This document shows, piece by piece, positions 2,842-3,050 of a stretch of 64,000 nt of DNA. The translations under genes were made by a program, and so were the position numbers. The notes below the pieces were generated by a model. It saw nothing but the letters and a program-made list of their open reading frames with translations, was not told the origin of the DNA and made no database searches. Position 1 is the stretch's first letter; each line of letters opens with the position of its first letter. The stretch lies in the NCBI RefSeq assembly GCF_003334255.1, contig NZ_QOWU01000005.1; one strand, given 5' to 3'. Source of the stretch: Escherichia coli. GTDB taxonomy: Bacteria; Pseudomonadota; Gammaproteobacteria; Enterobacterales; Enterobacteriaceae.

Positions 2842-3050
2842 CGTCGCATCAGGCGCTGGTTGTCGGATGCGGCGTGAACGCCTTATCCGACCTACGGTTC
2901 GGATTTGTAGGCCTGATAAGACGCGGCAGCGTCGCATCAGGCGCTGGCTGTCGGATGCGGCGTGAACGCCTTATCCGACCTACGGTTCGGGTTTGTAGGC
3001 CTGATAAGACGCGGCAGCGTCGCATCAGGCAATGAATGCGAAACCGCGGT
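2842..3050. repeat. REP/BIME array: two tandem ~100-bp units containing palindromic GCCGGATGCGGCGTGAACGCCTTATCCGACCTACG-type motifs
   Basis: Near-identical direct repeats with internal dyad symmetry visible in the cpsB-cpsG intergenic region; the ORFs called here (2677..2937, 2849..3070) are repeat artefacts. Confidence 0.7.

Follow-up and report, generated by a model that had tools for sequence, protein, structure and literature searches.

Strain-variable BIME-2 arrays in two spacers of the Escherichia coli colanic acid operon and a conserved algC RNA motif beside the first

The stretch of DNA analysed here (64 kb, hereafter the window) opens inside the colanic acid (wca) cluster of E. coli, where two intergenic spacers filled with palindromic repeats raise the question of what these repeats are and whether they could influence the long wca mRNA. 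A sequence-only reading had described tandem palindromic REP units of about 100 bp in the cpsB-cpsG and wzxC-wcaK spacers. The genes that frame the two spacers were assigned with NCBIfam and, for the four genes flanking the repeats, also from the RefSeq annotation of identical DNA in the strains PI12 and 214-4:

178-1401, plus strand: wcaI (NCBIfam)
1404-2840, plus strand: cpsB (NCBIfam and RefSeq annotation of identical DNA)
2838-2840: TAA stop codon of cpsB
2841-3120: cpsB-cpsG spacer, 280 nt
3121-4491, plus strand: cpsG (NCBIfam and RefSeq annotation of identical DNA)
4546-5940, plus strand: wcaJ (NCBIfam)
5942-7420, plus strand: wzxC (NCBIfam and RefSeq annotation of identical DNA)
7421-7779: wzxC-wcaK spacer, 359 nt
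7780-9060, plus strand: wcaK (NCBIfam and RefSeq annotation of identical DNA)

The annotated start of cpsG is the ATG at 3121, and position 3058, given in a mechanical list of open reading frames, is an upstream extension of the gene. Rfam matches elsewhere in the window, comprising a JUMPstart element at 13009-13047 (plus strand; beyond the wca cluster and before the O-antigen genes), the His operon leader at 35979-36102 (minus strand) and the sRNA STnc240 at 38841-38915 (plus strand), agree with the usual layout of wca, O-antigen and his loci. The cpsG-wcaJ spacer (4492-4545) holds a non-REP hairpin of 9 bp, CCCTTACCC cactgc GGGTAAGGG, with no U-tract after it.

Both spacers are internally repetitive and carry dyad symmetry. 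Tandem Repeats Finder reports a period of 88 bp in the cpsB-cpsG spacer (2.1 copies, 98% matches, score 364, 2842-3030) and of 96 bp in the wzxC-wcaK spacer (2.8 copies, 90% matches, score 454, 7448-7716), and a separate repeat search returned the same 88- and 96-bp units in register in both. Every unit of both arrays contains two inverted repeats of 14+14 nt with 86% complementarity. This is further supported by the REP head pattern GCCKGATGCGNCG, searched for with at most one mismatch: all nine of its matches in the window fall within the two spacers, against an expectation of 0.62 from shuffled sequence, and none of 100 shuffles reached nine. Tandem repetition, inverted repeats and pattern count thus agree with the earlier description of tandem REP units, the size of which has to be corrected from about 100 bp to 88 and 96 bp. 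The outer limits given before also shift, with the first array ending at 3030 and not at 3050, and the second extending over 7449-7716 and not 7437-7730.

We then typed the palindromes by a Hamming-distance scan of the whole window with y, z1 and z2 consensus sequences, which replaced a fuzzy-regex scan that had missed several copies. The scan finds nine full REPs in the window, every one of them in these two spacers. Minus-strand y and plus-strand z2 elements, all with GTAG at the foot, alternate strictly and lie inverted to each other:

2842-3030, no strand: array 1, BIME-2, in the order half z2, y, z2, y, z2; 88-bp unit, 2.1 copies
2842-2854, plus strand: half z2 consisting of the 3' arm only (CGTCGCATCAGGC), beginning 1 nt past the cpsB stop codon
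2862-2895, minus strand: y REP, 2 mismatches to the y consensus, reading ...CCTAC on the plus strand
2907-2942, plus strand: z2 REP with a 5' GTAG, 0 mismatches to the z2 consensus
2950-2983, minus strand: y REP of unit 2 (Hamming scan)
2995-3030, plus strand: z2 REP of unit 2 (Hamming scan)
7449-7716, no strand: array 2, BIME-2, in the order y, z2, y, z2, y, truncated z2; 96-bp unit, 2.8 copies
7449-7482, minus strand: y REP, perfect match to the consensus
7502-7537, plus strand: z2 REP, 1 mismatch
7545-7578, minus strand: degenerate y REP (GCTGAATAAACGCC), 4 mismatches in the upper stem and loop
7598-7633, plus strand: z2 REP (Hamming scan)
7641-7674, minus strand: y REP whose stem foot is mutated (CCTTATCAGTCCTAC) (Hamming scan)
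7694-7716, plus strand: truncated z2 REP, GTAG and 5' arm only (allele comparison)

The linkers from z2 to y measure 7 nt; between CTAC and GTAG there are 11 nt in the first array and 19 nt in the second. The y REP at 2862-2895 holds a locus-specific compensated pair (GTCGG...CCGAC). Of the six REPs in array 2, three have degenerated or been truncated; compared with the 372-nt allele of SWYH.B349aT, a small deletion has removed the 3' arm of the last z2.

The Rfam model naRNA4 (RF02564), derived from a Y+Z2 unit of REP325, was used as an independent test of the typing. It matches the minus strand at 2910-2980 with 75.1 bits and at 7601-7671 with 67.7 bits, in both cases above the gathering score of 59.5. 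At the first locus both hairpins are present in the alignment and the linker is 6 nt shorter than that of REP325; the mRNA-sense strand scores 50.9 bits there, under the threshold, against 75.1 for the minus strand. Since the minus strand gives the better fit, the wca transcript carries the complement of naRNA4 at this locus. naRNA4 itself is described as a discrete HU-binding RNA; the strand that matches it here runs antisense to the wca operon, and neither spacer has a promoter-like site.

REPs, the most frequent of the small palindromic repeats in E. coli, and BIMEs have been on record since the 1980s; a REP is an imperfect palindrome of about 35 nt that has a mismatch in its stem and a conserved GTAG at its foot. 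In the classification of Gilson, Bachellier and Hofnung, as summarised in PMC3333891, BIME-2 combines y with z2 in multiple tandem copies, and the elements are conserved within a locus with a copy number that varies between strains (PMC3333891). The wca arrays show GTAG-footed palindromes, alternation of y and z2, tandem copies, an extragenic position, homogeneous units and a variable copy number. They also belong to a dispersed, high-copy family, with the array queries matching a median of 11 and of at least 37 places per genome in all 5,426 genomes. Both arrays are therefore almost certainly E. coli BIME-2 elements, from which they differ in nothing substantial; half REPs stand at the array edges. 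The closest likeness is to the REP325/naRNA4 array between yjdM and yjdN, likewise a Y+Z2 tandem between co-oriented genes of one operon (RF02564; PMC4550694), although REP325 has 12 palindromes compared with 4.5 and 5.5 in the wca arrays.

The presence of REPs here is itself not new. In O157 and other E. coli, Iguchi et al. (2011) found the wcaK-wzxC and cpsG-cpsB spacers to contain REPs 34-36 bp long, together with REP-containing indels between strains at both sites (PMC3158064). The wca REP arrays and their indels have thus been known since 2011; that account does not hold the y/z2 typing as BIME-2, the series of 0-3 and 0-5 units or the frequencies of REP-free alleles. In the MG1655 RefSeq record no repeat_region features are listed in the wca region.

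The arrays also explain several open reading frames in the mechanical list, which the sequence-only reading had taken to be spurious:

2677-2937, minus strand: open reading frame through array 1
7372-7764, minus strand: open reading frame through array 2
7421-7783, plus strand: open reading frame of 120 codons through array 2

The last of these begins directly behind the wzxC stop codon (TGAATG), overlaps the wcaK start through ATGA at its end and stays open because the 96-bp unit is exactly 32 codons. Its translation, like those of the others, consists of familiar REP peptides, for example CRMRRERLIRPT. In other strains the longest spacer reading frames differ in frame, strand and length, and they are gone from REP-free alleles; PGAP/RefSeq places no CDS in either spacer on the identical DNA of PI12 and 214-4. 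Since they lack conservation of frame, strand and length, do not occur in REP-free alleles and are unannotated, the array-spanning reading frames are ruled out as genuine protein-coding genes, which bears out the earlier judgement, and they should not be called genes in annotation.

To follow copy number across strains we compared the same region from 14 other E. coli genomes, with spacer lengths taken from annotation and sequences:

window: cpsB-cpsG 280 nt, wzxC-wcaK 359 nt
PI12: cpsB-cpsG 280 nt, wzxC-wcaK 179 nt
K-12: cpsB-cpsG 104 nt, wzxC-wcaK 275 nt
214-4: cpsB-cpsG 192 nt, wzxC-wcaK 359 nt
TUM18781: cpsB-cpsG 192 nt, wzxC-wcaK 179 nt
O157:H7 F6321: cpsB-cpsG 192 nt, wzxC-wcaK 179 nt
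EC529: cpsB-cpsG 280 nt, wzxC-wcaK 468 nt
DETEC-P61: cpsB-cpsG 101 nt, wzxC-wcaK 71 nt
LF4-1: cpsB-cpsG 368 nt, wzxC-wcaK 564 nt
SWYH.B349aT: cpsB-cpsG 280 nt, wzxC-wcaK 372 nt
TW08637: cpsB-cpsG 192 nt, wzxC-wcaK 145 nt
ABU 83972: cpsB-cpsG 104 nt, wzxC-wcaK 72 nt
SMS-3-5: cpsB-cpsG 101 nt, wzxC-wcaK 71 nt
MS21-1: cpsB-cpsG 101 nt, wzxC-wcaK 161 nt
uk_P46212: cpsB-cpsG 104 nt, wzxC-wcaK 468 nt

Among these 15 alleles, the window's included, the cpsB-cpsG spacer contains 0, 1, 2 or 3 units of 88 bp, and the wzxC-wcaK spacer 0 to 5 units of about 96 bp, together with partial deletions. The zero-unit cpsB-cpsG alleles are of two kinds, one of 101 nt without any REP-related sequence and one of 104 nt that keeps the 13-nt half z2; the latter, found in K-12, is what a collapse between direct CGTCGCATCAGGC repeats would leave. 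The REP-free cpsB-cpsG junction occurs in at least 515 of 5,426 complete genomes, as counted with a junction-specific query at a coverage of at least 80%, and REP-free alleles of both spacers sit in intact wca clusters. Being this common, they indicate that the arrays are dispensable. State frequencies were estimated from evenly spaced samples of two ranked match lists. They suggest, roughly and from 34 informative rows, that one unit is the commonest cpsB-cpsG state, with the two-unit state of the window looking uncommon (2 of the 34); for wzxC-wcaK, an equally rough estimate from 51 informative rows suggests two units and four or more as the commonest states.

The unit sequences also bear on how the arrays arose. 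At locus 1, all units in every strain share the stem GTCGG...CCGAC (versus GCCGG...CCGGC) and the 11-nt linker, which argues for local amplification from one founder unit, and locus 2 has a 19-nt CTAC-to-GTAG linker and an ACTGAAT linker instead. Each array would have been seeded once per spacer, and whole units would then have been gained by duplication or lost by deletion. As candidate mechanisms, the repeats of 88 or 96 bp may have undergone slippage or unequal recombination, possibly assisted by the REP-associated transposase TnpA_REP. Near-identical haplotypes have equal copy numbers (the window and PI12 at locus 1, the window and 214-4 at locus 2), and the arrays are therefore polymorphic and not hypervariable.

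In filled alleles array 2 is enclosed by a short direct repeat (7438-7446 and 7724-7732 in the window). Some of these alleles (e.g. uk_P46212) have CGGCAAC; in the window the repeat is CGGCAA, its left copy reading CGGCAAT. The empty wzxC-wcaK site of ABU 83972 (L012 6922-6993) reads TTCCGGCAACGAACAC. The direct repeat could be an insertion footprint or a deletion microhomology. A different, G+C-rich and boxC-like repeat, e.g. CCCTCTCCCCAGGGGGCGAGGGG, is found in wca spacers of other strains, namely in wzxC-wcaK of MS21-1 (L014 6922-7082) and in cpsG-wcaJ of TW08637 (L011 3912-4046), where the spacer measures 135 nt compared with 54 nt. The spacers of the wca operon seem to accommodate repeats of several families readily.

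The part of the cpsB-cpsG spacer that does not vary lies outside the BIME and had been overlooked by the sequence-only reading:

3067-3116, plus strand: algC RNA motif (RF02929), 78.2 bits (gathering score 33.8)

The motif adjoins the start of cpsG, which encodes phosphomannomutase, at 3121. It is kept in 15 of 15 alleles, the REP-free ones included, and is present in K-12. The conserved element of this spacer is thus the algC motif and not the BIME, and in annotation the regulatory candidate of the first spacer should be this motif, with cpsG starting at 3121 and not at 3058.

These observations lend weight to the main rival of any functional reading, according to which the arrays are neutral or selfish passengers tolerated by the spacers, with no measurable effect on wca expression or topology. 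Unit numbers of 0-3 and 0-5 and REP-free alleles in intact clusters are consistent with such passengers, as are the degenerate and truncated REPs of array 2, the small repeats of other kinds in these or adjacent spacers (boxC-like, MS21-1 and TW08637), which suggest permissive landing sites, and the algC motif as the sole invariant part of the cpsB-cpsG spacer. On the other hand, the stems are intact in most REPs, one y stem carries a compensated pair (C-G to T-A), mRNA hairpins near -20 kcal/mol would probably not leave exonucleases unaffected, and the REP325 array changes expression of its downstream gene about 8- to 10-fold. We regard neutrality as a possibility to be taken seriously, though one that we do not favour.

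Another view is that the arrays serve as recombination junctions for the exchange of O-antigen/wca segments between lineages. REPs near the O-antigen locus have been speculated to be recombination points, and some of the REP indels in the wcaK-wzxC and cpsG-cpsB spacers coincide with changes in sequence similarity (PMC3158064). The window is indeed a mosaic of two haplotypes. Over window positions 1-9500, identity to PI12 extends as far as about 6513 and identity to 214-4 begins at about 5815, with 0-2 differences per gene to PI12 (wcaI-wcaJ) and 0-1 per gene to 214-4 (wzxC-wcaL). The crossover at 5815-6513, however, falls in the wcaJ/wzxC coding sequence, about 900 nt from the nearest array, which rules the arrays out as the junction of this window, a single case. 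As a general account, recombination at the arrays appears extremely improbable.

To assess what the arrays could do as RNA we analysed the predicted folding of the spacers. Sense-strand RNA of the first spacer folds with -134.6 kcal/mol (z -6.3) and that of the second with -182.9 kcal/mol (z -10.4), and intact single REP hairpins range from -17.8 to -20.5 kcal/mol. The following hairpins illustrate this range and the weaker stems of the degenerate copies in array 2:

2862-2895: hairpin of the y REP, -18.4 kcal/mol, z -4.9
2907-2942: hairpin of the z2 REP, -20.5 kcal/mol, z -5.7
7449-7482: hairpin of the y REP, -20.5 kcal/mol
7502-7537: hairpin of the z2 REP, -17.8 kcal/mol
7545-7578: weak hairpin of the y REP, -10.6 kcal/mol, z -2.5
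7641-7674: hairpin of the y REP, -9.5 kcal/mol, z -1.2

No terminator-like or promoter-like sites were found in 2841-3120 or 7421-7779. The REPs have a G+C-rich intergenic hairpin in common with intrinsic terminators but their stems lack the U-tract; with no U-run after any REP stem, an identity as intrinsic terminators was rejected. An internal promoter in the spacers was likewise discarded, since no promoter-like site was found.

Hairpins close to a stop codon could also act on translation, by stalling terminating ribosomes and thereby lowering the output of CpsB or WzxC. According to the summary in PMC12306157 of Liang, Rudd and Deutscher (2015), REP hairpins that control translation lie less than 16 nt downstream of the stop codon. 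In the predicted fold of the first spacer, the half z2 at 2842-2854 and the 5' arm of the first y form a hairpin that starts 1 nt past the cpsB stop, and a TCCGGCA/TGCCGGA hairpin starts about 15 nt past the wzxC stop codon. The canonical REP stems, in contrast, start 21 nt after the cpsB stop (2862) and 28 nt after the wzxC stop (7449), outside the range of under 16 nt, and the alternative hairpins would have to compete with these stronger canonical y stems. We consider control of translation by the arrays very improbable.

The sequence-only reading had proposed that the repeats stabilise or attenuate the wca mRNA. REP325 is the best experimental model for a dual role as stabiliser and attenuator. 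It stabilises the upstream mRNA and cuts the downstream gene about 8- to 10-fold, partly in a Rho-dependent manner, and no support was found for a nucleoid-condensing role of naRNA4 (bioRxiv 10.64898/2026.03.23.713779). By analogy, the wca arrays would be co-transcribed in the long wca mRNA and give a row of stable hairpins without U-tracts. These may slow 3'-to-5' exonucleases and so protect the upstream cpsB and wzxC segments, and some transcription into cpsG and wcaK might be lost in a Rho-dependent manner. We consider it fairly probable that the arrays combine their BIME-2 identity with a modest barrier to exonucleases and some attenuation that scales with unit number. Any such effect on the wca mRNA is most likely local, graded and non-essential.

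Several observations temper this reading. RfaH suppresses Rho-dependent termination. K-12 has a JUMPstart element upstream of wza, and ChIP places RfaH on wza-wcaM (PMC9765446). With RfaH on the wca transcription complex, the attenuating component should therefore weaken here, the Rho-dependent loss being blunted by the RfaH-modified RNA polymerase. The REP-free alleles in intact clusters indicate that there is no strong selection for the arrays and that any role they have is modulatory, and the three impaired REPs of array 2 are what would be expected of decaying, unselected copies. Furthermore, REP effects at other loci are highly context-dependent genome-wide, and REPs that trail a reporter are not always stabilising (bioRxiv 10.64898/2026.03.23.713779).

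An effect at the level of DNA was also considered, in which the arrays serve as strong gyrase sites and remove positive supercoils that arise when the wca operon of about 20 kb is strongly induced. Gyrase cleavage sites are over-represented in BIME-2, with a preference for y REPs, and under a transcription block their signal goes up, not down (PMC6379681); array 1 has two y REPs and array 2 has three. The wca arrays, too, probably bind gyrase. Cleavage sites were, however, confined to a subset of the BIME-2 elements in that study (PMC6379681), and REP-free strains exist. Action on supercoiling is compatible with, and not exclusive of, an explanation at the RNA level, and as the account of what these arrays are for we find it unlikely.

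If the barrier and attenuator activities that we favour do scale with the number of units, this number could act as a heritable, lineage-specific dial of the cpsB:cpsG and wzxC:wcaK ratios and of colanic acid output. Unit number would then set both exonuclease protection and Rho-dependent read-through, and the stop-adjacent hairpin, found only in array-bearing cpsB alleles, might add a translational component. We hold such a dial to be distinctly unlikely. The importance of the arrays is small, as a known element at a known location. The natural alleles with 0-3 and 0-5 units nevertheless offer a possible test set for the recent idea that REP arrays tune expression within an operon.
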